From Escherichia coli (lineage in GTDB: Bacteria; Pseudomonadota; Gammaproteobacteria; Enterobacterales; Enterobacteriaceae): a DNA stretch of 64,000 nt. The stretch lies in the NCBI RefSeq assembly GCF_013315695.1, contig NZ_CP054353.1; one strand, 5' to 3'. Both the position numbers and the translations under genes were made by a program. Below are positions 3,411 to 38,488 of the stretch, one piece after another; position 1 is the first letter of the stretch, and every line of letters begins with the position of its first letter. Below the pieces are notes generated by a model. The model was not told the origin of the DNA and searched no databases. It worked only from the letters and a program-made list of their open reading frames with translations.

Positions 3411-3887
3411 TTATCTTACCAGCGCCAGCGCAGAACTGATGCCGGACTTAATATTATTTGTCAGATCTCCCAGAGATGAAGACTGAAGACGTTCGCGGAG
3501 ATCTTCATTCACACGCTGAAAGGTCACCGTAAACTCAATCTTCCGCGCCTTGCCATAGCGATCAAGCTCTGAACGCGTGGTATTCAGAGCGGTAATAACG
3601 TACATACCGTAAATCTGCCCGACACCATCAATCAGCGGCCATGGACGTCCAGCATACGCCTGAGTTGTCAGCGCGGTAAGTGAGACTTCACCGCCTGTAA
3701 TTTCCGGGTAGAGAAGACCGGAAAGCGTGATGGTATCGTCACCCGCGCCGATATACTGCCAGCTGGCCGAGCGATTGATTCGCTCATTCTTCACGTGGCG
3801 CCAGTTACGGGACTGCTGTATTTGTTGGTGTGGCAGCGTGCTTAACTGAAAAACAAACATGCCGTAAATCATCATCATAATCACCAC
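3411..3887 (-). CDS. phage tail protein, P2 gpU-like
   Basis: 158 aa; resembles remembered gpU (FVFQLSTLPHQ, LYPEITGG, WPLIDG, IYGMYVI); directly downstream of tape measure. Confidence 0.75.
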   Translation of the reverse strand: MVIMMMIYGMFVFQLSTLPHQQIQQSRNWRHVKNERINRSASWQYIGAGDDTITLSGLLYPEITGGEVSLTALTTQAYAGRPWPLIDGVGQIYGMYVITALNTTRSELDRYGKARKIEFTVTFQRVNEDLRERLQSSSLGDLTNNIKSGISSALALVR

Positions 3888-3889
3888 TC

Positions 3890-6748
3890 CTAATCACGAT
3901 CGCGGAAGCTGTTCATCCCGGCGGATTGTCTGCGAATTTCTTCCCGTACAGCCTCCCCCACCATTCTGGCAAGGTCGCGCGGGTTCTGCGTCGCCACGTT
4001 GTGAAGATGAACGTGGATTTCCCCACCGAACACAGACGACGGTTCAGGAGAGCGCGAAGCCTCCCGGGTAGCCGGGGAGACTGGCGCCCACTGCTTAACC
4101 TCCACGGAACGGGAAGCATCCCGGGAGACCTCCGGAGGCACAGGCGAAACCGGAGGCATAACCGGTAGTCCTGGCGCAACAGTCGGCTCATTCCACTGCC
4201 CGCGAACAGCCAGCGCACGGGGGAGGTTTTTAAACACGATATCGCCGGGACCGATACGCTTGCGGGCTTCATGAAGCATGCCCGACGTATTACCCTCGAT
4301 ACCTTTAAGCCTGCGAAGAACGGCGCTGTTACCGCTGGTTATGCCGGGGGGATTGCTGGTTTTACCGTCATTCTGTGGATTACCATTCCCGTTGTTATTA
4401 TTGCTGACAGGAGCGGCCGGAGTGGGTACCCAGGACTTCTGAACCATTTTTTTCTGAACAGGGTCCCACTCCCACATAACCGGAGCCTTTGCAACTGCCT
4501 CAGCACGATTTTTCGCCCGCTCAACTTCAGAAGGGAGCACGCCGAGTTTTTCCAGCACCCATGCCAGGCCGTCCATCAACGCCTGAAGAGGAGTAAGCGC
4601 AAGCGATATCGCCCCGCTGAGCACGCGACCAAAAGTTTCCCCGACCGAGGCACACCGTTCAAGAGATTCATGGCTGGTCTGAACAGGTGTGAGTAACCGC
4701 CTGAACCAGTCATACACCGTGGACACCGCACCCGATACCAGATCAAACAGCGGCGCAAACTGAGCAACACCTTCACGAACAGGCGCAAGGCCAGCCCACA
4801 GCGCCCGGAATGTTCCGAGCATAAAAGCCTTAACCTGTTCCCAGTGACGCCATATGAGCAGCGCTCCACCGGCAAGGGCAGCAACCACGAGACCAACAGG
4901 ACTGAGAAGACCGGCAAGCGCCCCGCCCAGCACTGAAACCGCACCGGATACCATCCCCCACAGTGCCGGAAGGCCAGACAGGCGAAGGGCAAGACCACCA
5001 ACGCCAGTTGCAACAGAGGAAAACCCGCCACCAAGAAGCGCAGAGCCAAGCTGAAGTTTTGCAAAAATACCGGTCAGCACCCCGGAGGTCAGGGACAACG
5101 CCCCAAGGGCTGTCGTGGCCGCAAGAACACCACCGGCAACAATCGCCAGAGTACGCACCAGTTGCGGATTATCCTGAACCCATCCTCTGAGCCGTTCACC
5201 CCATGATACCGCTACCTGAACAAGTTCGCGGAGGTCATCGGTGACAAGGGCAACGACATCACTGCGTATACCGGAGAAGACACCAGACAGGCGATCGGCA
5301 TCACCGCCAAGGTTATCCCGCAGAACATCACCCATACGCCGGGCGGTTCCCTGCACCTGCCCCATACGGTCAGACACCGTTGCCAGCGAGCGGAGAAAAT
5401 CCGGGATCTGATCAACGGCCAGATCTTCGATGGGTGTGCCGAACAGCGCTATCGCCGCATTGGCTCGTTCCGCAGGATCCTGAATCTTCAGCAGCCCGGC
5501 AGCCGTTCGCTGCATTGCCTCGCGAGCAGCCGCGCCTCCGCTGGCAATCGCTGACAACATTTTTTCCGCATTAAGGCCAATCAGCCCATAAGCCTCAACG
5601 CTTGCTTTGGACATATCCGAGCCACGAATACTGAATTCCTTGACGGCATCGCCGGTTTTATCCAGGGCGAATTTCCCCTGCTGCGCCATGCTGACAAGCA
5701 GCGTCATGGTTTCAGAGCCGGAGAGCCCCATATTGCGGAAATGCGTGGAATACTCATGCAGAATTTCAGGAAGTTCGCCGCGCATTTCGGCGGACATTTT
5801 CTGCATGCCTGCCGCCATCAGGTCCACGGCCTCACCTGCATTTGCAGCGAGACCGTTTTTCAGCATGATGCCGGCCGCCTGAACCTGTTCAGCCACATTA
5901 CCGCCGGTGACCTGAGCAAGATCGATTGCCTGCCGTGTCACCCTCTCTAGTTCTTCAGTCCCTACAGTACCCAGTGCGCCAAGCGTGCTTTGCGCCGCAG
6001 CTGCCGCTTCGGAAATCATCGCGATATCCGTAGCCGCACCTGACGCACGGATGTTCTGAATCATACGGCTGTAGCGCTGGCCGTCTTCTGCGCTGCCTCC
6101 ACTCTGTGCCGCAATGAGCGCACCCTGCCGTTGCTCTTCAACAACAGGTGCAACCGCACGTCCGGCGGCGTACAGACCAGCACTGCCCGCTGCCATGGCA
6201 AGCGCACCGCGCTGGCTGAGTTTACCGGCGATATCCTGAACACGATCGTAACGTTGTTGTGCCTGCGTGACGCGCGCAAGCTGAGCCTGCTGGCGCTCAA
6301 GCTGATCGTTGTATTCCTGCGTTCGCCTGATTGCTTCTTCAGTGGTGCGGTTACTTCCGTCCGCCCGTATACCGTGAGACTCCAGCTCACGACCGGCTTC
6401 CCGTAGCCGGGACTGGTGAAGGGCGTAAACGGTATTAAGACGCTCAATCTTTGCAGTCAGTGAGCGGATAGCTTCCTGCTGTTTTTCCGTCAGTGTCGTG
6501 CCAGTACGCTGGACCTCCAGGAGGCGCTGAAGTCGCCCACGCGCCTCGTTCAGGCTGTTTTCAGTCGAGGCAACCTGCTGACGGGCACGGGAAAACGCAT
6601 CACTGCTTCGCTGGAGTGACTTAAGAGCGTTCTGCGTGGAGGAAAGAGATTCGGAAAGCGCGCCGGTCATTTCCCGGGCGCGCCTGACGGGTTGGGTGAG
6701 ACGGTCGACCGCAGTGAGGGCTACACGTATCTGGAGATTATTACTCAT
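3890..6748 (-). CDS. phage tail tape measure protein, P2 gpT-like
   Basis: long helical/Gly-rich ORF; track ORF starts at GTG 6802, ATG start (MSNNLQ) at 6748 overlaps the E' stop. Confidence 0.85.
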   Translation of the reverse strand: MSNNLQIRVALTAVDRLTQPVRRAREMTGALSESLSSTQNALKSLQRSSDAFSRARQQVASTENSLNEARGRLQRLLEVQRTGTTLTEKQQEAIRSLTAKIERLNTVYALHQSRLREAGRELESHGIRADGSNRTTEEAIRRTQEYNDQLERQQAQLARVTQAQQRYDRVQDIAGKLSQRGALAMAAGSAGLYAAGRAVAPVVEEQRQGALIAAQSGGSAEDGQRYSRMIQNIRASGAATDIAMISEAAAAAQSTLGALGTVGTEELERVTRQAIDLAQVTGGNVAEQVQAAGIMLKNGLAANAGEAVDLMAAGMQKMSAEMRGELPEILHEYSTHFRNMGLSGSETMTLLVSMAQQGKFALDKTGDAVKEFSIRGSDMSKASVEAYGLIGLNAEKMLSAIASGGAAAREAMQRTAAGLLKIQDPAERANAAIALFGTPIEDLAVDQIPDFLRSLATVSDRMGQVQGTARRMGDVLRDNLGGDADRLSGVFSGIRSDVVALVTDDLRELVQVAVSWGERLRGWVQDNPQLVRTLAIVAGGVLAATTALGALSLTSGVLTGIFAKLQLGSALLGGGFSSVATGVGGLALRLSGLPALWGMVSGAVSVLGGALAGLLSPVGLVVAALAGGALLIWRHWEQVKAFMLGTFRALWAGLAPVREGVAQFAPLFDLVSGAVSTVYDWFRRLLTPVQTSHESLERCASVGETFGRVLSGAISLALTPLQALMDGLAWVLEKLGVLPSEVERAKNRAEAVAKAPVMWEWDPVQKKMVQKSWVPTPAAPVSNNNNGNGNPQNDGKTSNPPGITSGNSAVLRRLKGIEGNTSGMLHEARKRIGPGDIVFKNLPRALAVRGQWNEPTVAPGLPVMPPVSPVPPEVSRDASRSVEVKQWAPVSPATREASRSPEPSSVFGGEIHVHLHNVATQNPRDLARMVGEAVREEIRRQSAGMNSFRDRD

Positions 6749-6895
6749 CGTTATGATTCCCGGATCTGGCAGCCGCCCGCTCTCGCCAGGCAACAACCTC
6801 ACCAGGACTCATACCGAATATCTCTGCGGGCGACCAGTTAAAGACAACAGCGATATCAGCGACAAGCTCTTCGATATCGTCAAACAGGAGACGAA

Positions 6896-7288
6896 TTACA
6901 TCACACCTGTATTCGTCTTTTTCTTGCCGGGCAAGGCCTTCGGCGAGAAAAAATACGTTGCCGCCGTGGAAAGCGCCCCGAAATCCTCCGTGCGCATGGT
7001 CGACAGTTCCGCTTCAGTAAGGCGGGGCTCTGTAACACGGCTGAGATAAACGCACATCGCGTTAAAGTTCAGGCTGTACAGGTGAGCCAGAGACAGACCA
7101 CGCAGTGAACCACTCTGACGGGCACGTTCGCCAATCTTCACATGTGTAATAACCTGTTCACCACGGACAACCGGAACGGTTAACTCAATGGGCTCACCGT
7201 TATAGGCAACCTCATTACCATCAGCAACATCAAAGTTGTCGACGTTATCAGCACCGGCAACCAGTACTTCGTTTTGTTTTTTTGACAT
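6896..7288 (-). CDS. tail assembly chaperone gpE-like (zero frame); E+E' product predicted by -1 frameshift ending at 6741
   Basis: ATG with AGGAG SD; slippery heptamer T_TTT_TTC at 6947-6953; -1 frame stays open for 68 codons to a TAA overlapping the tape-measure ATG. Confidence 0.7.
   Translation of the reverse strand: MSKKQNEVLVAGADNVDNFDVADGNEVAYNGEPIELTVPVVRGEQVITHVKIGERARQSGSLRGLSLAHLYSLNFNAMCVYLSRVTEPRLTEAELSTMRTEDFGALSTAATYFFSPKALPGKKKTNTGVM
6947..6953 (-). other. programmed -1 ribosomal frameshift slippery site (T TTT TTC) for E/E'
   Basis: X_XXY_YYZ heptamer in frame with the E codons TAT-TTT-TTC; downstream -1 frame is open. Confidence 0.6.
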
Positions 7289-7333
7289 TGTGAAATTCTC
7301 CTGGCGGCCACACGACCGCCGTCAGTCAGTTAA

Positions 7334-7846
7334 TCAGCCAAGTCCCAGCATGGAGCGGGTGCGATCAGGCAGCACATCCTTGCCATCAACGCGCCAGATG
7401 AAGTTCAGCACGTCGATTTCAATAACATCGCTGTTATCAACGCTGAGCTTGTACCAGGTGCATTTCATCGCGTAGGTGTGTTCGGTATCTTCACCCTGTT
7501 TGGCCTCGCCCTTGTCGATTTCGACAATGCGACCACGGGCTTCAATATCGACGTACTCAATCCCTTCTTCGGAATAGTATTCACCCGAGAAGCGCACGCG
7601 TACCGCATCAATGCCAGCGGCATATTTGGCAAAGATGTGACGATCCATACCGCCAACCGCAAAGGAGAGATCCAGCGCACCATCATCAAGACCGAGATCC
7701 ACCGCCGCAGAGCCTGGCATACCCGCACCACGATATGCTTCCGTCTTGCGGGTCAGTTTCGGTGGGGTGAAGGAGGTCACCTTACCCAGTTTGTTGTCAC
7801 CGTCCACAAAGACGGTAAACACACGAAGTTTTTTTGGTACGGCCAT
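7334..7846 (-). CDS. phage tail tube protein, P2 gpFII-like
   Basis: 170 aa; resembles remembered P2 FII (PKLTRK..YRGAGM motif). Confidence 0.85.
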   Translation of the reverse strand: MAVPKKLRVFTVFVDGDNKLGKVTSFTPPKLTRKTEAYRGAGMPGSAAVDLGLDDGALDLSFAVGGMDRHIFAKYAAGIDAVRVRFSGEYYSEEGIEYVDIEARGRIVEIDKGEAKQGEDTEHTYAMKCTWYKLSVDNSDVIEIDVLNFIWRVDGKDVLPDRTRSMLGLG

Positions 7847-9051
7847 CAGCTACCTCCCAGAGATGCAAAAGCAGAGCCAAAGAACTCGTCGGTAAACGTC
7901 TGATAGAGTTCCATGCATTCCATCGGTGGTACGGGCGTGTATTTGTAGCGAATGCGCACAATGCCCTGACGAAGACTGGTCGTGTTGTTGTCGACAATAT
8001 CGAACCAGCATTCCGCCCCAATGAGTTTTCCGGCCGTGACCAGGGAATCCAGTTTCGCCTTGATGGCACTTACTGCATCTTTCGCATTGGAAGGTGTCAG
8101 AGGCGAATCCACCACCTGAAGCTGCGCCTCTGCGATACTGTCAGCCAGTTGTTGCGCCGTGCGGGTGTACACCTCAAAGATATACTCCGCTGTTTCCGGC
8201 GTACGGTTCCCCCAGAAACGGAAGGAGCCGTCACCCTGGTGAATAATCGTGGTCACCTCACTGCTGTTCAGCGTGTTGGCATCGCTGTTTTCATCCTGAA
8301 GCGACCAGGAAACCGACGCAGAGATCCCGAGAACATTCTTCACAGGGATGTTTGAAAGAGAGCGATGCCAGCCCTGTTCGTGGTCGATTCGGGCACGAAG
8401 ACCGCACGCATACGCCGCAGCCGGGAAAGTTTCACTTTTACCGGACACGGGGTTGAACGCCGTGAAATCAGGCCACAGGAGCATGATTTCACGCCCGGAA
8501 ATCTTTTTGCGGAATGCAATGGCATCGGACGGTTTTGTGCATGCCGGACAGCCGGAATACGCAAAAGCTCGCATTTTGCCCGCAATCGTCACCAGTGCCG
8601 CCGTAACGGCATCGGACTCAAGACCGGGCGCTGCCAGGATACGCGGACGACAGCCAATCCCCTCCATCTGTTCAGCGACCAGAAGGGCCTGCATCCCCGT
8701 GTAACTGCCATCAGACTCCACAGTACCAATAACAAGCTGGTCCTGTGTCTTCTGGTCTTCCGCCTCCTTCGCTTCGGCAACACGCACGACGATAACGCGC
8801 GTGCTGACCTGATCGGAGATAGCCTTAAGGGATTTGTAGAGCGTCCCCTTTGTGCCAGCCTTACCCAGAACATTATTGACTCGTGTTAACAGCACCGGCG
8901 TGTCAAGCGGGAACTGCTCTTCGTCAGCATCATCTGCAACAGCAATAAGCCCAATGACGCTGGAATCAACGTCATTAATTGCCGTCACCAGATCGGTGTT
9001 TTCCCTGACGCGCACACCGTGAAATCGTGTTTCAGCCATACGATTCACCAT
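7846..9051 (-). CDS. phage tail sheath protein, P2 gpFI-like
   Basis: 401 aa; strong similarity to remembered P2 FI (LRAFAY, EQGWH..LSN, FWGNRT, YKYTPVPP motifs); start 9051 or 9039. Confidence 0.9.
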   Translation of the reverse strand: MVNRMAETRFHGVRVRENTDLVTAINDVDSSVIGLIAVADDADEEQFPLDTPVLLTRVNNVLGKAGTKGTLYKSLKAISDQVSTRVIVVRVAEAKEAEDQKTQDQLVIGTVESDGSYTGMQALLVAEQMEGIGCRPRILAAPGLESDAVTAALVTIAGKMRAFAYSGCPACTKPSDAIAFRKKISGREIMLLWPDFTAFNPVSGKSETFPAAAYACGLRARIDHEQGWHRSLSNIPVKNVLGISASVSWSLQDENSDANTLNSSEVTTIIHQGDGSFRFWGNRTPETAEYIFEVYTRTAQQLADSIAEAQLQVVDSPLTPSNAKDAVSAIKAKLDSLVTAGKLIGAECWFDIVDNNTTSLRQGIVRIRYKYTPVPPMECMELYQTFTDEFFGSAFASLGGS

Positions 9052-9191
9052 CAGTTGTGTTTATGTTCGCCGGAATCATCCATGACTGGCGCGCAGATCT
9101 CACGCGTTGGGGGGTGTGAGGGGGTTCTTACAACAGAACCGAACGGAAACGACCGGAACTGCGTGGGATGATACGTATACGGGAGGGCTGC

Positions 9192-10681: not shown

Positions 10682-11193
10682 CGGCTGGAAGGATTACCTG
10701 AAGGCCGGATGTGGAAAGGCCCCGAGTCAAACATATTGTTTAACCCGAGGCCCTAACCATCCAACCGTGACAAGTGGAAGGTTAGCGCCTCTTTGAAAAA
10801 GGAGCAAGCGCTATGCCGCAAAAAACGATCATCGTGAGCATTTTATGCTTAACCATGTTGTTGACCGTCTGGATGATACACCGTTCGCCGTGTGAATTCA
10901 GACTTAACATCATGTGGTCAGAATTTGCGGCGTTCTTGCAGTGTAAACCGTAAGAAACCGCAGCGGGGGTGAAAGCCCCCGCTATCCGGTTGTTAAAGGT
11001 TCAGTCGAAAGTCGCACCCTTGCATGCAAGTCACAAAGAAAAAACAAAGCCCGTAGCGTAAAAACTGCGGGCTTTTTTGTTTCAAAGATGGACGTTATAT
11101 GGACACCTGAAAATAAATTCCTTTTATTTTCAATTAATTAACATAATGCAAAAAGCGCCCGCAGGCGCTTTTTAGATTCAGAAAAATTGGGTA

Positions 11194-29157: not shown

Positions 29158-29328
29158 TGTCAGTTATCATCTTCGGTTACGGTTATCGGCAGAACGCCCT
29201 GCCGCTGACAAGAGCTTATTTGCCTGACCAATCTACTCCACATGATAGATAACTATCATTTATAACATCTCATTGATTAGTCTTTATTTTTCATTGTGTT
29301 ACAAATAACAGCTCTGTCAAAAACAGCG

Positions 29329-29355
29329 AAATTAACTACACCATTAACTACACCG
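29329..29355. repeat. 27-bp direct repeat AAATTAACTACACCATT(A/G)ACTACACCG, left copy (right copy 40368-40394); candidate integrase binding or att sequence
   Basis: two copies, one mismatch, each followed by clustered CGAACAA motifs (29356-29395 and 40400-40510). Confidence 0.5.
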
Positions 29356-30293
29356 TTTCACGAACAATATCGAACAACCACGAACAAAGATCAACACGCT
29401 TTAACCGTTATCATTTTCCGGCTATCCGTTATGAAGCTGGTGGATGTTCCCCGATATGGGGATCCCCACCTACCGGAATTTTTGCCAGGTTAAATGTTAA
29501 CCTCTGCCCTGTTAACATTTTTACCAAAAAGGTAGTTAACATTTTTTGCACGCAACCAGATGAATCATAAAGAAAAAATCAACAACAACGCTTCATCAGG
29601 CAGTTAACATGTTAACTACTACGAAACGGTAATTTTTTCTCTGCGTGAGAGGGGGCGCGGTGTCCAGCTTATTCGTTGTTCGTGGCTAACCACTCCCCCC
29701 CCATGCCGGATTTTTTTTCCGGTTAACTGTTAATCAGGCTGGTGGGTTTTACATACCCTTGATCACCGTAATGATGATCCAGATCTGCACATTTCCACCA
29801 ATGGTGGAAAAGCCCACAGCAGGCCGCCCAGCCTCCACCAATGGGGTAAAAGCATCAACCGTAACGAAAGTCGTTATGGTTGCCACCGATACCCCAAATT
29901 TGGGTATCACGAGTAAGCCCCAAAATCTGGGTGTTACTCTTACCACCCAAACTACGGGTAGTTTCCGTAGTTTCATGGTCGAGTTGCAGATCTGCAACTC
30001 CCCCATTAACCACAGGCGAATTTCCGCCTTCGGTCATTCCTTAATCATCTGCGTAATCATAATGATTATTCAGCAAGCGCAATTTTGCGCTTTGCTTAAA
30101 GTTCAGCGAGTTACCGCGCCGACTTCCTCAAATTGAGGTTTCCGAAAATATCAGCGGGTTAGCGATTAAGCTGATCATTAATTAAACTGCGAAAATTTCG
30201 TAGTTTGTGACTGTCTTTCAGGCAGCTTGTTAACAGTCCTCAGAAGCGAGGGATGTAGCCACCCATTTTTGGTCCGTCGGGAATATCAACCAG

Positions 30294-30575
30294 TTACCGC
30301 CGCAACCGCTCCGGCTTCTTCCAGTGGTACGTTATTTTCTCCTTCTCCCGATACATCTCCACGCGGCGACGGTAGGCCAGCAACTCAAGAACTCTGGTTC
30401 GTATGTTGCGCATATCCACGCCATTAAGTTCTATACCATCACGGCGCATCACCTCCGCAACAACACGCGCATAATTTTCAGCGGTCACGCTGTCCGGCTG
30501 CGTGGCCTGTTCGTCAACCTGCTGGCTGATTCCGGCAACGCGGCGGATTAATCCCAGTATTTCGGCTTCTGTCAT
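30294..30575 (-). CDS. hypothetical protein (93 aa) next to the left cos site
   Basis: ATG with G-rich SD; no family recognised. Confidence 0.45.
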   Translation of the reverse strand: MTEAEILGLIRRVAGISQQVDEQATQPDSVTAENYARVVAEVMRRDGIELNGVDMRNIRTRVLELLAYRRRVEMYREKEKITYHWKKPERLRR

Positions 30576-30610
30576 TGTGCCCCCATCGTTCTGATAGTCT
30601 GGTGTCGTCG

Positions 30611-30840
30611 GGTCCTTCCTGGAATTATGGCCCGTTACGGGGCGGCGACCTCGCGGTTTTTCGCTATTTATGAGATTTTTTGAGGGGGTGGTTGTTGTTT
30701 AATTGTTTGGTATATCTAATTGATAAGTAAGGTAAAAATAAAATAAATACAACAACCTTACGATGTATTTTGATGTCATTAATGTGAAAAAATTCAATGA
30801 TATCAAATGGTTTTGTAAAAACACATGGTTGTTGTATCGC
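30611..30840 (+). other. lambda-type cos site, copy 1 (cosQ-like, cosN GGGCGGCGACCT at 30640-30651, cosB-like region pointing rightward)
   Basis: GGGTCCTTCC..GTTACG-GGGCGGCGACCT-CGCGGTTTTTCGCTATTTATGAG closely matches remembered lambda cos; three GGTTGTTGT repeats (30690, 30749 inverted, 30828) as candidate TerS sites. Confidence 0.6.
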
Positions 30841-31008
30841 GTATTTGATGGCGTAACAGAAAGTGATTTTTAACTTTACCGCTCTGTAACTACGGATTAT
30901 TCCATGCTGGCACGGAGAACGGCTACGGCATGACGCCACCCAGCCTATACAGCACAGTAAAGCCGATAAATTGTTAATCACGCGCAGCAATGCGTGTGAT
31001 TTTTGCAC

Positions 31009-31206
31009 ACTTCCGGTTAACGGGTACGATGTCCGGTTTTAGTGTCTGTTTTTTGCGCATGTCCGGTTCATAGAAAGCATGTTTTTATATTTTTCATATG
31101 GTTAACTTGCAGAGAAACCGGACATGGATCCCGGAAAATTTTCATAAATAGTGAAAACGCGCGAGGTCGCCGCCCCGTAACGGGTCCATATGCCGGAAAG
31201 GACCCG
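31009..31206 (-). other. lambda-type cos site, copy 2, inverted (cosN on the minus strand at 31164-31175, cosB-like region pointing leftward)
   Basis: minus strand reads GGGTCCTTTCCGG..CCCGTTACG-GGGCGGCGACCT-CGCGCGTTTTCACTATTTATGAAAATTTTCCGG, near-identical to remembered lambda cosQ-cosN-R3; three ATGTCCGGTT repeats (31029, 31059, 31116 inverted). Confidence 0.65.
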
Positions 31207-31208
31207 TA

Positions 31209-31233
31209 AAAAAAAGCCGGATTTCTCCGGCCT
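31209..31233 (-). terminator. rho-independent terminator ending the island capsid operon
   Basis: minus strand GGCCGGAGAAATCCGGC followed by T8, directly after the 137-aa gene stop. Confidence 0.55.
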
Positions 31234-31237
31234 TGTC

Positions 31238-31651
31238 TCAGATGGTTTTCAGTATGCGATCGATGTCGCCGTCATCGCCCTGGTTTCTGCCATCGTACGC
31301 CATGCCAGCTGATACGGCTTGCGGGCTGTGCATGTCCATAAAGTTTTCAAAGGCTGCGGTAAGCTCTGGTGCAACCTTTGGGCGCTCCTGCTCTATGGTC
31401 ATGTTCAGGATTTCACGAGCATTATCGACGCTAATACATGGCACGTTTGCCATTGCACGTAACAGCGGCTGATAGTCGTTATGTTCATGAAGCGCCATAA
31501 TCGCATCAGCGCGCGGCTTGTCCTGTTCTTCCAGTTTGTTGAGTTGATATACGGCCTCGTAGGTTGATAAACCTCTGTCAGCCATTGCCCGCGCTTCTGC
31601 TTTAAATTTACTCGCCAGCGGTAGCGCCATGATGCTTTCATTCGTTGCCAT
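31238..31651 (-). CDS. hypothetical protein (137 aa), last gene of the capsid operon
   Basis: ATG with AGGGGAA SD; no family recognised; candidate packaging-redirection factor by position only. Confidence 0.5.
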   Translation of the reverse strand: MATNESIMALPLASKFKAEARAMADRGLSTYEAVYQLNKLEEQDKPRADAIMALHEHNDYQPLLRAMANVPCISVDNAREILNMTIEQERPKVAPELTAAFENFMDMHSPQAVSAGMAYDGRNQGDDGDIDRILKTI

Positions 31652-31663
31652 CGTTTCCCCTGC

Positions 31664-31999
31664 TTATCGCGCCAGCGGCTGAACGGATACGCCAGAACCC
31701 GCAAAGGCGGCGCATTTTTTCGCGTCAGTGTCGGCGCTCTCAGGCCAGTTTACGGCGGCGATATTAAATATCCCCGTCTTGTAACACTGTGCTGATTTCT
31801 GCTTTGACGTGTCCACGGGGTACGAAGTCAGATAAACAGCCTTGCCAGATTCCTGACCATCCCACGGCTTAAACTCGCCATTGTCCGCCAGCATCAGCGG
31901 GGTAAATTCCTGAATAACGCCAGCATCAGCGGCAAAATGTACCAGCGTCGTGGATACCTGCTGACTGCCTGCAAATAACTCAATGTATGGAGTGTCCAT
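31664..31999 (-). CDS. head decoration protein, lambda gpD-like
   Basis: 111 aa; shares TPLMLD, WDG, YK(S/T)G.F, WPE, AFAG motifs with remembered lambda gpD (110 aa). Confidence 0.65.
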   Translation of the reverse strand: MDTPYIELFAGSQQVSTTLVHFAADAGVIQEFTPLMLADNGEFKPWDGQESGKAVYLTSYPVDTSKQKSAQCYKTGIFNIAAVNWPESADTDAKKCAAFAGSGVSVQPLAR

Positions 32000-32011
32000 A
32001 GAATCCCCCCG

Positions 32012-33067
32012 TTAACCAATTTTGACGGTAACAAATTTGCGAATATCTGCCGGAACCGGCTGCGGTGCGCTGTGCGTCTGCACGTACTCAATCGCCGGAT
32101 CGCCGTCCTCAATCCAGTTTTTCGGGTAAAACATGTTTTGCGTTGCGCCCGTTCTTACCGCTTCCTGTTCCAGGATCGCACCATAGGCCACCAGCCCTTT
32201 ATTGTTGGTGTTGCCCAGGACCAGCAAATCAGGCTCAAGGAAATATTTTTCTGTGCCGTCGCTGTCAGTGTATTTGCCGGAATAGACGATAAGGGCCAGA
32301 TCACCAAGATAGCCTTTAAAGCTCACCACTTCGCCCAGGTTTTTACATGCCAGCTCTGCGGCGGATTCTGAACCACGGGAGAGATCGTACAGTTCACGGA
32401 ATTTTTTAAAGCTGCGTAACATGCGCCATACATCAACGCCCATAATCATGACGTTTGCGGGGCAACCTGCCTGATCTGCGTATAGCTCAATGTCATAGAT
32501 TGGGTCGTGTATGTCTTTGTCCTGCTCTGACCATTTTTTACCGTCGGCCTGCTCTATGATGTTTTTTTCCGGTATCTTCCAGTCGATTTCATAGCGCTCT
32601 ATGCCTTCGCCCTCAATGATGTTTTTTCCGGTCGTTACCGCATTTACCGCCAGCCATTCCACGCGCGCTTTAATGGCGTTTATCTGGCGGCGCATGTTGC
32701 CAGTAATCAGGCGCATACGGCGGTAGGTAGGGTCGTTAAGCTGTGCTGGATCTTCTCCAGCCATGCGCATTATTGTTTTTAATGGATCGATTTCGTGTTT
32801 TGGCTTCATGTAGCCAGGGCGAATAATGCTTGTTTCGTACCCTTTATCGCGCTGAACCTGGCTACCCACCATAGGCGAACAAAACGCCGACATAGTGACT
32901 TCTTCAATATCCAGGTTATCTAACATGATGTCCTGTGTGTTGAATGTCGCCACGTTCGGGAAAAACAGCGCGGTAAACAGCGGACTGAATTTAAATTCCG
33001 CAATATCCTCGCGATTCAGGTACGCAAAAAGCTGGTTAGTGTTAAGTGCTATTGCTTTTACTGTCAT
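32012..33067 (-). CDS. major capsid protein, lambda gpE family
   Basis: 351 aa; collinear similarity to remembered lambda gpE (FKF.PLF..LFF, PGY(V/M)KPKHE, DP.YRR.R, YPKNW..GDPA, SAP); start overlaps the upstream stop (TAATG). Confidence 0.85.
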   Translation of the reverse strand: MTVKAIALNTNQLFAYLNREDIAEFKFSPLFTALFFPNVATFNTQDIMLDNLDIEEVTMSAFCSPMVGSQVQRDKGYETSIIRPGYMKPKHEIDPLKTIMRMAGEDPAQLNDPTYRRMRLITGNMRRQINAIKARVEWLAVNAVTTGKNIIEGEGIERYEIDWKIPEKNIIEQADGKKWSEQDKDIHDPIYDIELYADQAGCPANVMIMGVDVWRMLRSFKKFRELYDLSRGSESAAELACKNLGEVVSFKGYLGDLALIVYSGKYTDSDGTEKYFLEPDLLVLGNTNNKGLVAYGAILEQEAVRTGATQNMFYPKNWIEDGDPAIEYVQTHSAPQPVPADIRKFVTVKIG

Positions 33068-33273
33068 TATTCACCCCCGTGAACCTGATTCATACCCAGC
33101 GCCGCGCGTAAATAGGCGCGTACCTGCCAGCCTGTTGACGGCTCAACCATCGCCAGCGGATCAAGTCCTGCCGCAATGCCTGCTTTTACGTTCTGCTGGT
33201 GGCGTTCCTTGAGCGCCTTCACGATGTCGGGGCTTATGTACACCGAAACACCGCCTTTTTTCTCTTCAGCCAT
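33067..33273 (-). CDS. hypothetical protein (68 aa), first gene of the capsid operon
   Basis: ATG with AAGAGG SD; translationally coupled to the capsid gene. Confidence 0.5.
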   Translation of the reverse strand: MAEEKKGGVSVYISPDIVKALKERHQQNVKAGIAAGLDPLAMVEPSTGWQVRAYLRAALGMNQVHGGE

Positions 33274-33302
33274 AGTAAGAAATTCCTCTTTGACTTAAAA
33301 AA

Positions 33303-33357
33303 TCATAACTGGATGTTCATCCAGTTATGATTATAATCATGATTGCATTTTGTGCAA
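33303..33357 (-). promoter_or_regulatory. promoter of the island capsid operon with a 28-bp palindromic operator
   Basis: minus strand TTGCAC-N16-TATAAT immediately followed by perfect palindrome TCATAACTGGATGAACATCCAGTTATGA. Confidence 0.5.
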
Positions 33358-33527
33358 TGATATTGAGTTGCGTTGCAAATTATGAAATTATTATCCCGAT
33401 CATGTGTGTCAGTGCACCAAAAAACCTCATATGCAAAAGCCCGATAAGCCACCTCTGACCTTATCGGGCTTTTTTTGGGCGCAAAAAAGCCGGATTGCTC
33501 CGGCTGTGTGGTGTGGTTCTGGTATTC

Positions 33528-33776
33528 CTACTCTGCTAATTTGCTCAGCCCCATGTCTGCGTAAGTGCGATTTACTGCATTTCTCAGGTCTGCATAGTTC
33601 TCCGTTGGCGGCTCCGGTGGCCTCTGTGCCTTCCTGGAACATTCCAGCCGTCGCATCGTGATGTGATGCCGTTCCTTGTCTGTCTCCACCAGCATCATGA
33701 CTTCACCCCATCGCGCCGCCGCCCTCCGGTAAAATCCTTTCGCTTCGAGTTCTTCCGCTATGCGGTCATGTACCAT
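33528..33776 (-). CDS. small regulator, possibly PerC/Pch-family transcriptional activator
   Basis: 83 aa from ATG 33776 with GAGGGGG SD; LEAKGFYRRAAARWGEV resembles the PerC-family core as remembered; weak call. Confidence 0.35.
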   Translation of the reverse strand: MVHDRIAEELEAKGFYRRAAARWGEVMMLVETDKERHHITMRRLECSRKAQRPPEPPTENYADLRNAVNRTYADMGLSKLAE

Positions 33777-33786
33777 CGTCACCCCC

Positions 33787-34197
33787 TCAGAACGGAATAT
33801 CATCACCGTAAGGGTCATCGCCTCCCGCTGGTGGCTGATTACCCTGTGCGCCTGTGGTTTTGCGTCTGTTCCCGCCAGGACGTGCCGCACGGGCACTGAT
33901 TACGCTGTCTGCAATAACCTGATAACCCTGACGCGTCTCCCCGTTCTGTCCGGTCCACTGGCTTACCTGCATCGTGCCGGATACGCTGGCAACGTCGCCT
34001 TTTTGATGTTTAGCCAGGAAGTCGGCCTGCTTACCAAATGCGATGACCGATAGCCATAACGTCGCCTGTCCGTCCTGTGCCTGACTGCATGGCAGTGATA
34101 CCGCCATACGCGCCAGCGTCATCGGTGTGCCCTTGCTGGTCTGTTTTACCTGCGGGTCGTCCACCAGCCGACCGTAAGCCGCTATCTGTGCTGTCAT
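33787..34197 (-). CDS. single-stranded DNA-binding protein (SSB-like)
   Basis: 136 aa; OB-fold pattern (W..V.AFGK.A, KGD.V.V.G, W....G..R) and C-terminal acidic tail ...DDPYGDDIPF typical of SSB. Confidence 0.65.
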   Translation of the reverse strand: MTAQIAAYGRLVDDPQVKQTSKGTPMTLARMAVSLPCSQAQDGQATLWLSVIAFGKQADFLAKHQKGDVASVSGTMQVSQWTGQNGETRQGYQVIADSVISARAARPGGNRRKTTGAQGNQPPAGGDDPYGDDIPF

Positions 34198-34445
34198 GAT
34201 TCCACCTCTCCGGTTTTAACGTTGATGGTTGTTACCTGTTCCGCTTCGGCAATCTCCCGTTCTGTCAGCGTGGCAAAGTTTGCCGCCGCCGTGGTCATGA
34301 ATGCGCTTATCAGGTCGGGATGTTCCTTCGCGTATCCTTCCCGCGTGTGGCGGTCTATCGTTCTGATTGCCACCTTTAAGGTGTGCTCAGTCATGTCTAA
34401 CGCTTTATATTTTGGCTCTGTTCTGTCTCTGCGTGTTCTGGTCAT
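34194..34445 (-). CDS. hypothetical protein (83 aa)
   Basis: ATG 34445 with GAGGTGG SD; stop overlaps the SSB start (ATGA). Confidence 0.4.
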   Translation of the reverse strand: MTRTRRDRTEPKYKALDMTEHTLKVAIRTIDRHTREGYAKEHPDLISAFMTTAAANFATLTEREIAEAEQVTTINVKTGEVES

Positions 34446-34469
34446 TTGCCACCTCAATTTATATATATA

Positions 34470-34805
34470 GAAACATGTGCGGGTTATGCGGGTTATTGGG
34501 TTATCTTAGCGTGCTAACCATTTTTTATCCTTTTATATCAGTATTTTGCAAAACACCCTGTTTATTATTTGCCCACCACGTAACCCGCAAAACGCTCAAA
34601 ATAACCCGCAAACGGGGTTTTTTCTGCGGGTTACGCATGACTGTCCGGTGTTACTTCAGTTATTCGCCTGCGGGTTATAATCGTGCTTTTGCGGGTTATA
34701 AATGCCCTTTTGCGGGTTACGTGCGGGTTATTGGTTTCCTTTATATTCATGCACTTAATACACTTATACACAGGATAACCCGCATAACCCGCAATTTTTT
34801 TCCTC
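34470..34805. repeat. iteron array, candidate replication origin of the island
   Basis: at least 12 copies of GCGGGTTAT / ATAACCCGC in both orientations within ~330 bp of AT-rich DNA, directly downstream of the primase-replicase gene. Confidence 0.65.
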
Positions 34806-34815
34806 ACACAGGGGA

Positions 34816-36939
34816 TTAATCTTCATCATCAGGCTGGAACATCAGCACGTAAAAAACATGCTGCTTACCCCCAATCTTGCCCAGCGCCTTTTTTTTGTAT
34901 CGGCGATCGCTTCCCTTCTCCAGCATTCCGGCAGCATCCAGGGCACGCGCAAAATGCGCCGGATTAAATCCCTTCGCTATCTCACTCTCAAACACGTGCG
35001 GGAACGTGTAATAGCGCATCTCGTCATCTTCGTTGCGAATGCTCCCTTTTCTGTATCCGGCAAGCTCTTTAATCGGTAAATCACGCTCATCTGTATTGGG
35101 GTACGGAAGGTAGCGGCTAAACCCAAACGACGACAAAAACGCCTCAGCCTGTTCAACCATCTGTTTAAATTCCCTGTTACCCGTGCCGAACTCCTTCACC
35201 CAGGCATTAAAGTTATGCTGTATCGCGTCGCGGCATTCCTGCACGACCCAGCCAGTTACATGACCGGAAAGCACAAGCGCGGCCTCCAGTATGGCGAAAC
35301 GTTCACCCACGCGGTGGACCTGCTCGCCGTAGCTCTCCGGTATCAGGTTGCGCCACCGTTCGCGGCATTCCCTTACCGTATCCTTTGCCTCCTGCTGGTG
35401 GCCTGCCAGCCATTTAACCCACTCACGACCCGCCGCCCCGTGATTTGCTGTCCAGGCATCCTTTAACGCGTCAGCATGTTCCTTACCGTTGCTGTATTCG
35501 TGAAATTTCGTGGCTTTTTCCATCGGAACGTTAAGCAGTCGGACAAGCTGCCCCGCCTTAACTTTTATCCCCTCACTTTTGAGGAATGTCTCAACGTCCA
35601 TTTCTCCGGTGCTGATTGCCACCGTTCGCCAGTGTTTGATCTCCCTGTTGCCGCCATCCTTCGCCCCCTGCAATTTCCCTGAACCGTTAAACAGCGTATA
35701 AGCAGACGTTGACACTTCCCGCGCATTTCCGGCCTGGCCTATCTCATCCAGTGGTAAAAGCCCGTCATTATGGGCCTCGGCCTCATTGGCAATACCTAAC
35801 GCCGTGCCGTACCAGGTCAGCCGCTGCGCGTCCGGCTCTCCCCATAAACTTGATGCGATGTTCTGCGTGGTGGTCTTACCTGCCGATGACTGTTCGAAAA
35901 GATGCACCCCGAAGCCGTCAGCACCCACAAGGCCAATTAAAGGCGCTGCCAGTGACGTTGCCACACCCAGCATCATTGAGGCATTACCGCCAGCCAGCCG
36001 CGCCACACTCTCGCGCCAGCCCTCCGCCGTACCCGCCACGGAATAACCGTTAATCGCGGCGCTTTTTCCGGTAAACAGGATCGGTTTTTCAGAATCACCA
36101 ATGATCGAACCGTCCGGCATGATGTACGCGCCAAAATGCCAGCCCGTTGTTGTGCTTAACTGCCATTCCTCATGGCTTCCGCTTAACTGCATCCAGTCCG
36201 CCAGGATTGCCCTGTATTTGCCGTTGGTTGTCACGTTCAGCCCGTGATCTTTAAGTAACCGCCAGCCGTCACGGTCGCCGATACCACCACACGGGATCGC
36301 CATTGTGATGACTTCATGATTTGCTAATTTTTTCCAGCGCATGACGCGGTAATGCTCTTTACCGATCGTCCCCGTTCCCAGTAGTTCAAGCGGAGAACAT
36401 AACCACGTCTCAGGCCGGATAATTTCGCCTGACTGCTTATCCACTTTGGGCGTTACCCAGAAAACACCATCGGCGCGACTTTCAACGCGTGGCTTTAATT
36501 CGTCATCGCTATGGCTTCCGGTATCTTTTTTCTTTACCGGAAACTCAATAACCAGACCATCAGAAAGATTCTGCCGCTCACGGGCCAGATATTCGCGCCA
36601 GTTCTCCACCTCCTGACCGTGCATTCCATCAGGGTAAAAATTTGCATCCTGTACGCCTGCCGCCGCCAGCTTCTGACCAATCGCCTTGATCATTACTGGC
36701 TCAAGATGTCCGGCCCTGAATATGCGTACTGATTTTCGGCCTTCCGGCACAATTTGCAGCTTATCCAGTTCGGCAAGTTGTTGCTCTCCAAGCCAGACAG
36801 GAGGCACGTTATCGCCAGCCAGTCGCCCGTCCTGTTCCTGCCACTGTTTCGCATGTGCCCAGGCATCACTACCCGCAAAAATGATGACTTCCGTCATTTT
36901 GTCACGTGGCTGGTGTTTTAAATTTGGCGCTTTTTTCAT
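34816..36939 (-). CDS. primase/replicase (P4 alpha-like or PICI Pri-Rep-like)
   Basis: ~707 aa from ATG 36939; Walker A-like SSAGKTT; position next to the iteron ori; ATG overlaps the upstream stop. Confidence 0.75.
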   Translation of the reverse strand: MKKAPNLKHQPRDKMTEVIIFAGSDAWAHAKQWQEQDGRLAGDNVPPVWLGEQQLAELDKLQIVPEGRKSVRIFRAGHLEPVMIKAIGQKLAAAGVQDANFYPDGMHGQEVENWREYLARERQNLSDGLVIEFPVKKKDTGSHSDDELKPRVESRADGVFWVTPKVDKQSGEIIRPETWLCSPLELLGTGTIGKEHYRVMRWKKLANHEVITMAIPCGGIGDRDGWRLLKDHGLNVTTNGKYRAILADWMQLSGSHEEWQLSTTTGWHFGAYIMPDGSIIGDSEKPILFTGKSAAINGYSVAGTAEGWRESVARLAGGNASMMLGVATSLAAPLIGLVGADGFGVHLFEQSSAGKTTTQNIASSLWGEPDAQRLTWYGTALGIANEAEAHNDGLLPLDEIGQAGNAREVSTSAYTLFNGSGKLQGAKDGGNREIKHWRTVAISTGEMDVETFLKSEGIKVKAGQLVRLLNVPMEKATKFHEYSNGKEHADALKDAWTANHGAAGREWVKWLAGHQQEAKDTVRECRERWRNLIPESYGEQVHRVGERFAILEAALVLSGHVTGWVVQECRDAIQHNFNAWVKEFGTGNREFKQMVEQAEAFLSSFGFSRYLPYPNTDERDLPIKELAGYRKGSIRNEDDEMRYYTFPHVFESEIAKGFNPAHFARALDAAGMLEKGSDRRYKKKALGKIGGKQHVFYVLMFQPDDED

Positions 36940-37235
36940 TTCTGCTCTCTCCACGCGGCAATCATGTTTTTCAGTTCCTGTAGTTTTTTATCCACATCCA
37001 CACGTGACACATGGTTATTTCTGGAAGTCGGGATTTCCCGCCTGAATCTGCTAATAAAGATCTCCACGTTCAGCGAACTATGAAATGAATAGCCATCACG
37101 AATAAAATACACACGGTCAAACATCAGTTCTTTTACCGTTACTCTGTTGCCGTTCTTATCCAGATAAATAGCGCCGGGGATAATTTTGGGGTGTGCATAA
37201 CCGCTGGCAGTCAAGCCAGATAAATATGTTCTCAT
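36936..37235 (-). CDS. hypothetical protein (99 aa)
   Basis: ATG start; coupled to the primase. Confidence 0.45.
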   Translation of the reverse strand: MRTYLSGLTASGYAHPKIIPGAIYLDKNGNRVTVKELMFDRVYFIRDGYSFHSSLNVEIFISRFRREIPTSRNNHVSRVDVDKKLQELKNMIAAWREQK

Positions 37236-37241
37236 GATTAT

Positions 37242-37562
37242 TTATCCCCGATTTGAATCAGTATTCGCTTTCTTTATAGCATTTAATGCATTTGTGGCAT
37301 TTTCAATGGTGCACCGTAACGAAATATCAAACTGCCCAAGCATTGCCAGTAACAAACCGATATTACCCATATCAATGCGCATGGCCTTTTCGTCATATTC
37401 CTCATTTTCTGACGCATACCACATCAGGCTACCAATTGACGCAATACCCATTGATATATTGTCAGTAGCCCCATCCGCAGCGGAATAAACTTTTTTAGCA
37501 ATATCATGCTCACAGTTAAAATGCGGATTAATCAGGTACTGGTAATTGGTCATGTCAGGCAT
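37242..37562 (-). CDS. hypothetical protein (106 aa)
   Basis: ATG start; first gene of the leftward operon. Confidence 0.45.
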   Translation of the reverse strand: MPDMTNYQYLINPHFNCEHDIAKKVYSAADGATDNISMGIASIGSLMWYASENEEYDEKAMRIDMGNIGLLLAMLGQFDISLRCTIENATNALNAIKKANTDSNRG

Positions 37563-37839
37563 GGCACACCCCCTGACGAATACGGGCGGCGAATACCATC
37601 ACGCAGCCAGCCGGGGATTGCTGGCGTGCTTCCTGTTCGCTGCTGGCCTCAATGGTAATCACGCGCGGTTGTGCCGTGCTCAGGGCGATAAAACGCCAGA
37701 TGTATTTATTCAGGTTGTGCGAGTCCCGCCCTTGCGGGTGTGTGGTATGATTTAACATAGCTACCTCGATACTGTTGCTATCGTTGGTTGTTAGACGCCC
37801 TGCATGTGTTGCGAGCACTGCGGGGCGTTGCTCTTTCAG

Positions 37840-37885
37840 GTGTATTTCACCTTTGCTTTTTAATTTACTCACTGGTGAAATACAC
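37840..37885. promoter_or_regulatory. operator-like perfect 12-bp inverted repeat GTGTATTTCACC-N22-GGTGAAATACAC in a divergent promoter region
   Basis: lies between the divergent 106-aa gene and the small + strand gene. Confidence 0.45.
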
Positions 37886-37951
37886 TTCAAGCCTTTTTTT
37901 ATCATTTTTTTTGCGTATACTGACATACACCAATTTTTAGGAGATCCAGAA

Positions 37952-38131
37952 ATGGCAACTGGTGCAAAGAACGCAAAATCACAAATGACAACTGTCAGAA
38001 TCCCACATGAAGTAATGGATGATATTGAGCAACTTAAAGAACCTGGCGAAAGTACCGCTGGTTTTTTAGTTACTGCCGCAAAAGGCGAGATCAAACGCCG
38101 CCAGCGCCGCAAGGCCAAAGAATCAGAATAA
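37952..38131 (+). CDS. small DNA-binding protein, possibly ribbon-helix-helix (59 aa)
   Basis: ATG with AGGAGA SD; TTVRIPHEVMDDIEQL resembles an RHH beta-strand/helix; basic C-terminus. Confidence 0.4.
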   Translation: MATGAKNAKSQMTTVRIPHEVMDDIEQLKEPGESTAGFLVTAAKGEIKRRQRRKAKESE

Positions 38132-38188
38132 TCACTATCAGCGCCGTGGCGTGAGGTACTCCGGCGCATTGCTTTACAGGTCAGTACT

Positions 38189-38398: not shown

Positions 38399-38440
38399 TA
38401 GCGGCTATCATCCCCGTGCTTATGTTTAGTGTTTCCAAAC

Positions 38441-38468: not shown

Positions 38469-38488
38469 TATGTGCCATTGTCACCACC

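Follow-up and report, generated by a model that had tools for sequence, protein, structure and literature searches.

The tail gene block of a P2-like prophage in Escherichia coli (contig NZ_CP054353.1) raises the question of whether the DNA between the tail tube and tape-measure genes specifies one tail assembly chaperone or two, made from a common start by ribosomal frameshifting. We examined this locus within a stretch of 64,000 nucleotides (here referred to as the window; Table 1), for which a preliminary description had proposed an intact E/E' frameshift signal. On the basis of its sequence, we estimate with a probability of about 90% that the region encodes the tail assembly chaperone pair of the P2 family (i.e., E and E+E') by means of a programmed −1 ribosomal frameshift. 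We regard the site as real but ordinary, since frameshift sites of this kind are well known in P2-like phages.

Table 1. Features of the E/E' locus and its surroundings (positions in the window)
Feature	Position	Strand	Description
Gene U, tail protein	3411..3878	minus	Last gene of the inverted FI-FII-E-E'-T-U block; Pfam Phage_P2_GpU, E = 7.8e-41; RefSeq bounds
Gene T, tape measure protein (952 aa)	3890..6748	minus	Pfam PhageMin_Tail, E = 6.3e-17; RefSeq CDS with the same bounds
E' reading frame (−1)	6741..6953	minus	FF + 68 sense codons (70 open); TAA 6743-6741
Dual-read zone, heptamer to E stop (stop included)	6896..6946	minus	0-frame E tail SPKALPGKKKTNTGVM, then stop; −1 frame LAEGLARQEKDEYRCDV
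Gene E, putative tail assembly chaperone	6896..7288	minus	130-codon ORF; ATG 7288, TAA 6898-6896
Slippery heptamer T_TTT_TTC	6947..6953	minus	Read TA-T TTT TTC in the 0 frame; X_XXY_YYZ phase
Gene FII, tail tube	7334..7846	minus	Immediately upstream of E; Pfam Phage_tube, E = 3.1e-49
Gene FI, tail sheath	7846..9039	minus	First gene of the E/E' operon; Pfam Phage_sheath_1 and C-terminal domains; RefSeq bounds
TGT-N12-ACA dyad	9115..9132		Divergent FI/D intergenic region

Overlapping reading frames of E and E'

The genes FII, E, E', and T follow one another on the minus strand, which places E/E' between the tube gene and the tape-measure gene. An AGGAG motif is located 9 nt upstream of the E ATG. 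Counting from this ATG along the minus strand (7288 − 6953 = 335), the first T of the heptamer falls on a third codon position; T_TTT_TTC is therefore in the correct phase, as had been claimed, and the E stop follows after 18 codons. The P-site and A-site tRNAs at the heptamer are both tRNA-Phe, and re-pairing on TTT TTT is possible after a −1 slip. An early stop in the −1 frame, which the preliminary description had named as the observation that would count against the signal, is absent, and the TAA that closes the frame overlaps the tape-measure ATG (6748 to 6746) as ATGAGTAA. The predicted E+E' fusion is 182 aa long (residues 1 to 112 in the 0 frame, followed by 70 residues read from C6947). 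Its junction is Y-F-F-L-A-E (the sequence expected from a slip at the heptamer is ...ATYFFLAEGLAR), and its tryptic junction peptide is TEDFGALSTAATYFFLAEGLAR.

Both parts of the fusion have recognizable relatives. The 0-frame product E matched PHROG 103 (“tail protein”; E = 1.6e-29), and the BLASTP alignment of the fusion with P2 E+E' spans P2 residues 7 to 142, including the entire gpE part. E alone had no match above threshold in Pfam or NCBIfam, while PF10109 (Phage_TAC_7; tail assembly chaperones E, 41, and 14) aligned with residues 35 to 114 of the fusion at 16.7 bits (E = 0.0074), which is below the 25-bit gathering threshold. The homology of E was therefore settled through PHROGs and the direct comparison with P2. 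The E' frame matched Pfam PF06528 (Phage_P2_GpE; residues 143 to 178; E = 2.4e-14; 53 bits against a cutoff of 23 bits) and PHROG 1756 (residues 113 to 182; E = 1.1e-23), the latter match beginning exactly at the junction. A local BLASTP alignment of the fused product with P2 E+E', which is annotated as a joined product in the reference record (NC_001895), passes through the junction without a break (38% identity; E = 4e-31), and the slippery FF/FL codons of the window, P2, and P88 share one column of the multiple alignment. The comparison with P2 that had been proposed as a check thus places the slip site at the homologous codon; together with the synteny, the phase, and the GpE homology, it bears out the description of the signal as intact.

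As a control, we collected the 66 in-phase X_XXY_YYZ heptamers found in the 52 non-overlapping long ORFs of the window. The −1 frame after these heptamers remained open for a median of 11.5 codons, and it extended for at least 60 codons in only two cases and beyond the 0-frame stop in only four. The second of the two long runs lies in an ORF without a family match. The E/E' heptamer and its open −1 frame exceed chance expectation, and the −1 product, unlike a randomly open ORF, has significant family matches.

The pattern of substitutions also distinguishes the E' frame. Across the conserved 35-codon E' block, the window and P88 show 6, 5, and 17 differences at codon positions 1, 2, and 3, respectively. 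When read in the E' frame, the block contains 14 synonymous and 5 non-synonymous codon changes, compared with 3 and 19 or 1 and 20 in the other two frames. These counts show that the −1 frame is coding and has been under purifying selection.

Prophage context and persistence of the signal

The tail module had been described as being still under selection despite an inversion. The synonymous bias in the E' frame agrees with the first part of this statement, but the inversion is no lesion: the order FI-FII-E-E'-T-U opposite H-G and D is common to the isolated phage P88 and about 15 other E. coli prophages. Judging from these gene orders, the P88-like branch of P2-like phages normally has its FI-U block on the opposite strand, which corrects the idea of a rearranged tail module.

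Between the genome of E. coli MSB1_4I and the window, there are 5 mismatches in 29 kb of matching sequence. The MSB1_4I element is a prophage of ~38 kb with integrase at one end and ogr/hok at the other; it carries genes for replication, head, lysis, baseplate, and fibres, and the only flagged pseudogene is one embedded lysC. In the window, the tail-operon ORFs are all intact, with full-length family matches. The prophage looks complete in terms of its gene content. A tailocin or defective remnant, considered in view of the tail genes abutting serS, was rejected on account of the adjoining 27 kb in MSB1_4I, which contain head, lysis, replication, and integrase genes.

These data bear on the possibility that the prophage is non-functional and that the heptamer and the open frame persist for want of decay time. 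Of 5426 complete E. coli genomes searched by megablast, a single one contains the exact allele of the 548-bp E/E' region, and the purifying selection detected between lineages would reflect history rather than present function, both of which are compatible with such a relic. However, the intact tail operon, the gene content of the MSB1_4I element, and the gene order shared with an isolated phage make an inert relic very unlikely.

Within the prophage part of the window, a TGT-N12-ACA dyad occurs only once, in the FI/D intergenic region (Table 1). We take TGT-N12-ACA to be the P2 late-promoter consensus, and this copy might thereby serve the FI-U operon as an Ogr-type late activator site. The motif is not enriched across the window (9 found versus 15 expected), and the FI/D intergenic region of P88 contains no perfect copy.

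Slip site, its spellings, and its surroundings

T_TTT_TTC is present at the same position in all four lineage relatives among the IMG/VR contigs (L004 to L007). One of the four is identical over the E/E' region, and the flanking codons differ in L006. Conservation within the lineage rests on these four contigs, because megablast returned a single complete genome and other modules carry a different allele (i.e., the 88%-identical E. coli tail modules have a different E allele with T_TTT_TTG). A −1-competent heptamer occurs at the homologous codon in every related lineage examined, with spellings that vary among T_TTT_TTG (P2), A_AAT_TTT_TTG (P88), A_AAT_TTT (some contigs), and T_TTT_TTC (this lineage). 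Three relatives (L008, L010, and L011) carry A_AAT_TTT_A at the site, which keeps −1 access with a longest run of T4. T_TTT_TTC is one more spelling tolerated at a conserved slip position, a small point that leaves the known picture of tail-chaperone frameshifting unchanged.

The dual-read zone also contains an in-phase A_AAG tetramer (6920 to 6917, within AAG AAA AAG), which is specific to this lineage and is possibly a second, minor slip site. If some or most of the shifting occurred there and not at T_TTT_TTC, the junction would lie 11 codons later. The tetramer A_AA.G is the most shift-prone one in E. coli (PMC4066793), and here it lies in phase within an already open stretch of the −1 frame. 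However, tetramers barely exceed the background when no stimulator is present (PMC4066793), neither P2 nor P88 nor the H17-type allele carries this one, and PHROG 1756 homology along the −1 frame starts from the heptamer rather than the tetramer. We thus give little credence to this relocation of the shift.

A slip of RNA polymerase would lead to the same junction if one U were added in the T6 run and the transcript were translated normally. Sequence alone cannot separate the two kinds of slip, because an extra U gives exactly the same protein. Appreciable slippage by E. coli RNA polymerase generally needs runs of more than six, and T6 is shorter than such runs. The site is nevertheless a homopolymer of six T (A3T6 in P88), and U7/A7 runs are avoided in genes, possibly on account of transcriptional slippage (Sharma et al.). 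The T4 run of the three A_AAT_TTT_A relatives is easier to reconcile with re-pairing of tRNAs than with stuttering of the polymerase, and the P2 site is described as a translational frameshift, at least in the account of Christie 2002 that is cited in PMC3091744. Transcriptional slippage is accordingly a highly improbable source of the fusion.

An independent small E' gene translated without frameshifting, which is how RefSeq/PGAP (a separate CDS at 6896 to 6741 for a 51-aa “GpE family phage tail protein,” WP_032149167.1) and many phage records present it, can almost be dismissed, since the annotated CDS starts at ATT and shares one base with the E stop, the −1 frame has no ATG, GTG, or TTG from the heptamer until ATG 6812, this only canonical start falls within the conserved domain (the conserved block has already begun there), the PHROG 1756 homology reaches upstream of the annotated start and back to the heptamer, and the P2 record has a joined product. 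In RefSeq, E is a “hypothetical protein” (WP_016236124.1) and is kept separate from E'. The 182-aa E+E' is missing from the RefSeq protein set because E' was given an artificial ATT start and no ribosomal-slippage join was annotated. The practical value of our analysis therefore lies in the annotation of E, E', and E+E'.

We looked for the elements of a stimulator cassette, defined as a hairpin or pseudoknot 5 to 9 nt after the heptamer or a Shine-Dalgarno (SD)-like element ~10 nt upstream. The 90 nt downstream of the heptamer fold at −23.9 kcal/mol (z = −1.33; 27 of 200 shuffles were at least as stable), while the P2 counterpart has a z value of −1.98. A single stable local stem is present; it begins 28 nt past the heptamer and loses a pair without compensation in L006. 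A downstream stimulatory RNA structure was rejected on the basis of this z value and of the stem not being maintained in L006, in agreement with the literature on P2-like phages (PMC3091744). Upstream, purine/G-rich stretches are located 4 nt (P2), 7 nt (H17-type allele), 7 nt (window), and 10 nt (P88) from the heptamer. We claim no SD-like stimulator because this spacing is inconsistent, and the site does not resemble a stimulator-dependent cassette of the dnaX, IS911, or IS3 type.

Given the lack of a significant downstream structure and of a consistent SD-like element, the efficiency of the E/E' frameshift could be low. In an E. coli reporter, the frameshift-prone U_UU.U_UU.C, which is among the heptamers used by IS elements, yielded 0.12% on its own, a value that rose to 0.89% when the IS911 stimulators were present and to 7.6% when the IS3 pseudoknot was; the corresponding values for U_UUU_UUG in the same three contexts were 0.12, 0.25, and 0.77% (PMC4066793). 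No stimulator has been reported for P2 (PMC3091744), and the efficiency of P2-type frameshifting is reportedly 2 to 3 times lambda's few per cent (PMC5009743). Since bare heptamers reach only ~0.12%, P2-type sites might rely on an unrecognised context stimulator; since U_UUU_UUC answers stimulators ~10-fold better than U_UUU_UUG, the G-to-C change observed here could then set a different E:E+E' ratio. We consider this proposal speculative and rather unlikely to be correct. If it is true, the natural TTC, TTG, and A_AAT_TTT alleles at one homologous codon would provide a ready comparison set.

Proposed expression of E and E+E' and comparison with known systems

According to the programmed-frameshift reading, the FI-FII-E-T-U late transcript would be translated from the E start, and most ribosomes would stop at the E TAA and release the 130-aa E. 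A minority would slip back by 1 nt with TTT and TTC of the heptamer in the P and A sites, both tRNA-Phe molecules would re-pair on TTT TTT, and the −1 frame would be read for 68 more codons up to its TAA. The resulting 182-aa product would combine the N-terminus of E with the conserved C-terminus of the GpE family. By analogy with gpG/gpGT of lambda and E/E+E' of P2, the two proteins may coat the tape measure T at a fixed ratio, recruit tube subunits, and be absent from the virion. We infer both the occurrence of the slippage and the chaperone role of E/E+E'.

The site would share with dnaX, IS911, and IS3 the tandem tRNA slippage on an X_XXY_YYZ heptamer, but those systems need an SD-like element upstream, a hairpin or pseudoknot downstream, or both, and none of these was detected at E/E'. 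In its proposed mode of working, it matches G/GT of lambda (G_GGA_AAG) and other long-tailed phages, in which a low-level −1 slip immediately before the tape measure gene yields two proteins with a common N-terminus in a fixed ratio, and a stimulatory structure is not required (PMC5009743; PMC3091744). It differs from lambda in its heptamer and in that the virus is a contractile-tailed myovirus. Xu, Hendrix and Duda reportedly described in 2004 the tail-chaperone frameshift that is conserved among long-tailed phages, and Christie et al. 2002 (J Bacteriol 184:6522) are said to have placed the P2 −1 frameshift at T_TTT_TTG.

As in P2, the E/E' pair is located between FII and T, the slippery run has the same phase at the homologous codon, and the −1 ORF lacks its own start, encodes a C-terminus of the GpE family (PF06528), and ends in the identical ATGAGTAA over the T start. 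The heptamer ends in C here and in G in P2, and the A-site codon is therefore Phe (TTC) and not Leu (TTG). E has 130 aa here and 91 aa in P2, the difference being due to ~30 additional residues at the N-terminus; past the slip site, the 0-frame tail has 18 codons compared with 6, and the −1 extension, counted from the start of the heptamer in both cases, has 70 codons compared with 59. Additionally, the FI-U block lies on the strand opposite to H-G and D, whereas all of these genes have the same direction in P2.

The closest deposited phage homologue is that of P88 (~45% identity over residues 9 to 182). In P88, the heptamers overlap (A_AAT_TTT_TTG), E' stops at a TGA located 11 nt into T and not in ATGAGTAA, and a DNA invertase and alternative fibre segments lie next to U, while the window is without these. 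However, the E' DNA is 76% identical, E likewise has an N-terminal extension, and P88 and other members of the genus Xuanwuvirus (Peduoviridae) have the same arrangement of FI-FII-E-E'-T-U opposite D and the fibre genes, with hok beside D.

E/E' anatomy and the coding status of the -1 frame

The preliminary description placed an in-frame slippery heptamer (T_TTT_TTC) in E, followed by a -1 frame open for 68 codons up to a TAA overlapping the tape-measure ATG, and each point was borne out by translation. Since 7288 - 6953 = 335, the first T is at a third codon position; the resulting 0-frame reading (TA-T TTT TTC) has the X_XXY_YYZ phase that tandem -1 slippage requires. From 6953, the -1 frame translates to FFLAEGLARQEKDEYRCDVIRLLFDDIEELVADIAVVFNWSPAEIFGMSPGEVVAWRERAAARSGNHNDE and then a stop (i.e., 2 slippery codons and 68 further sense codons). 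No early stop follows the heptamer, and the frame remains open to the TAA at 6743-6741, which overlaps the start of the tape measure gene T (ATG, 6748-6746) as ATGAGTAA. The predicted fusion (E+E') is 182 aa long.

Coordinates of the E/E' signal, neighboring tail genes, and genes of the segment at 29260-41000
Feature	Position	Strand	Remarks
E ORF	ATG 7288 to TAA 6898-6896	minus	130 codons; minus-strand reading of 6600-7500
Slippery run TTTTTTC	6953-6947	minus	0 frame TA-T TTT TTC
Tail sheath (FI)	7846-9051	minus, as E	Pfam
Tail tube (FII)	7334-7846	minus, as E	Pfam
Tape measure (T)	3890-6748	minus, as E	Pfam
GpU	3411-3887	minus, as E	Pfam
Fibre protein, DUF4376 protein, GpD		opposite to E	Pfam
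Phage_cap_E major capsid protein	32012-33067		E = 3e-49; in 29260-41000
SSB	33787-34197		in 29260-41000
DUF927 primase/helicase-like protein	34816-36954		712 aa; in 29260-41000
Integrase	39108-40346		in 29260-41000

The fusion matched Pfam PF06528 (Phage_P2_GpE) at residues 143 to 178 (53 bits; cutoff, 23; E = 2.4e-14) and PHROG 1756 at residues 113 to 182, beginning exactly at the junction (E = 1.1e-23), while its 0-frame part matched PHROG 103 (E = 1.6e-29). In a conserved E' block of 35 codons, the window and the P2-like phage P88 differ at 6, 5, and 17 sites in codon positions 1, 2, and 3, respectively. Read in the E' frame, these differences amount to 14 synonymous and 5 nonsynonymous codon changes; read in the remaining two frames, they amount to 3/19 and 1/20. 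This synonymous bias, confined to one frame, indicates purifying selection on E'. The window showed the same pattern against P2 and against a second E. coli allele. Before the heptamer, stops are frequent in the -1 frame, which opens only 20 codons ahead of the FF codons. On this sequence evidence, the -1 frame is a genuine coding frame accessible only via E.

Such an arrangement is rare in the window. Its 52 non-overlapping long ORFs (18,339 codons) contain 66 in-phase X_XXY_YYZ heptamers with a median following -1 run of 11.5 codons; only 2 are followed by a run of at least 60 codons, and only 4 by a run extending beyond the 0-frame stop. The sole other long run (94 codons) follows TTTTTTT at 34795-34801 (plus strand). 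The 150-codon ORF holding it (34367-34819; TTG start) had no Pfam or family match and is probably a chance ORF adjoining the DUF927 gene.

Prophage setting and annotation

The first 29,259 bases differ from E. coli MSB1_4I (NZ_LR898874.1) by five mismatches (4644, 5208, 5556, 6452, and 10606), four of them inside T and none in E/E'. In MSB1_4I, the tail genes form the right end of a ca. 38-kb P2-like prophage inserted beside serS, which carries an integrase, an HTH regulator, a replication endonuclease, head genes (portal, terminase, scaffold, and P2-family capsid), lysis genes, baseplate V-W-J-I, and fibre genes, and ends with U-T-E'-E-FII-FI on the opposite strand, then D, ogr, and hok. The window's hok/gef-family toxin gene (10813-10953) lies at the prophage end beside ogr, as in P88. 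RefSeq names E a "hypothetical protein" and lists E' separately as a 51-aa "GpE family phage tail protein" (6896-6741) starting at an ATT codon; this public annotation without a slippage join is the main practical point.

FI (ATG 9039, minus) and D (ATG 9192, plus) diverge from a 152-bp interval that contains a single perfect TGT-N12-ACA dyad (9115-9132), ca. 85 bp ahead of the FI start codon; the dyad resembles the Ogr activator site of P2 late promoters. We propose it only tentatively as a candidate Ogr site, because the motif is not enriched across the window; the equivalent P88 region has no perfect copy. Placed here, a single symmetric site could activate late promoters on either side.

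The match to MSB1_4I ends at 29259, followed by divergence. About 11 kb (29260-41000) ahead of a macB-sized ORF (41048-42994) is absent from MSB1_4I here, and resembles a small capsid-encoding phage satellite (PICI type) integrated in the genome that also holds the P2-like prophage.

Proposed slippage and its alternatives

Beyond the anatomy, homology, and selection demonstrated above, we infer slippage at T_TTT_TTC and a chaperone role for the products. Most ribosomes would produce the 130-aa E, while a minority would slip by -1 as both tRNA-Phe re-pair to TTT TTT, and continue to the 182-aa E+E'. If lambda G/GT (PMC5009743) is a guide, the N-terminal part common to both products would bind the tape measure, and recruitment of tube subunits would fall to the E' part.

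In a systematic E. coli study, H_HH.U_UU.Y was among the most efficient heptamer classes and U_UU.C was the second-best tetramer (PMC4066793). Frameshift frequencies without a stimulator, with IS911 stimulators, and with the IS3 pseudoknot were 0.121%, 0.893%, and 7.58% for UUUUUUC and 0.118%, 0.247%, and 0.765% for UUUUUUG (PMC4066793, supplementary table). Since UUUUUUC equals or exceeds UUUUUUG in all three contexts, the window heptamer should be at least as competent as that of P2. No stimulator was found at this site. The 90 nt after the heptamer are no more stably folded than shuffled sequences (z = -1.33; P2 counterpart, z = -1.98), and no stimulator has been reported for P2-like phages (PMC3091744). 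According to a review, P2-type sites shift 2 to 3 times as efficiently as lambda (PMC5009743).

Four alternatives were considered, none of them favored. The in-phase A_AAG (6920-6917) could host a secondary slip, but this tetramer is lineage specific and not conserved. Transcriptional slippage would yield a protein identical to the ribosomal product, but is not favored given that A_AAT_TTT_A variants among relatives have no long run. Neither is an inert relic, as the ORFs are intact and the prophage looks complete. E' is unlikely to be translated on its own, since its frame lacks a start codon (the first ATG/GTG/TTG, at 6812, is within the conserved block) and homology reaches back to the heptamer.

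Comparison with P2, P88, and other relatives

An IMG/VR scan returned 80 loci. In each of the four closest (84 to 94% identity over the best tblastn segment), TTTTTTC is found where the window has it. One is identical in DNA across the 548-bp region; another (L006) has changed flanking codons (TAT to CAT and TCG to GCG) around an unchanged heptamer. The P88-like majority carries A_AAT_TTT_TTG. Three P88-like loci (L008, L010, and L011) read GTA AAT TTT ATG. Because these lack the T6G run, A_AAT_TTT, still a valid heptamer (A_AAT_TTT_A), is the only one opening their conserved E' frame. Since spellings differ among relatives at one position, slip position and -1 access are conserved while spelling drifts, the pattern expected of a functional recoding site; T_TTT_TTC is specific to the window's lineage.

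Another E allele, mosaic and with the spelling GGT TTT TTG, occurs in E. coli prophages with tail modules 88% identical to the window's. The operon is otherwise conserved, and its chaperone gene is a hotspot of mosaicism. In one of these prophages, that of UCPROB-002 (L084, 3553-4087), the 126-aa E allele with T_TTT_TTG looks unrelated to window 6741-7288, and RefSeq annotates E' only as a 23-aa "hypothetical protein"; prophages of this type match the window almost exactly at the E' end and T start. The window allele occurs in 1 of 5,426 complete E. coli genomes, and a DNA-level search of deposited phage genomes found none carrying it.

The preliminary description regarded the tail module as retained despite an inversion. 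In P2, H-G, FI-FII-E-T-U, and D all run in the same direction, whereas the window has the FI-U block on the opposite strand; however, P88, an isolated phage, has exactly the window's layout, as do the 88%-identical prophages. Judged from these genomes, the arrangement is thus lineage typical rather than a disruptive rearrangement.

The P88 slip site (A_AAT_TTT_TTG, versus T_TTT_TTC in the window) may be redundant, with overlapping A_AAT_TTT and T_TTT_TTG. P2, whose record annotates the frameshift, has GGT TTT TTG in the same phase and the same ATGAGTAA junction to T. Its E+E' aligns with the window fusion in a single continuous BLASTP alignment spanning the junction (38% identity; E = 4e-31), and the slippery FF/FL codons of window, P2, and P88 share one alignment column. 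Phase, open frame, family matches, and this alignment confirm the proposed P2-type signal, which represents an ordinary, previously uncharacterized case of the P2 E/E+E' family and carries a minor variant of the heptamer.
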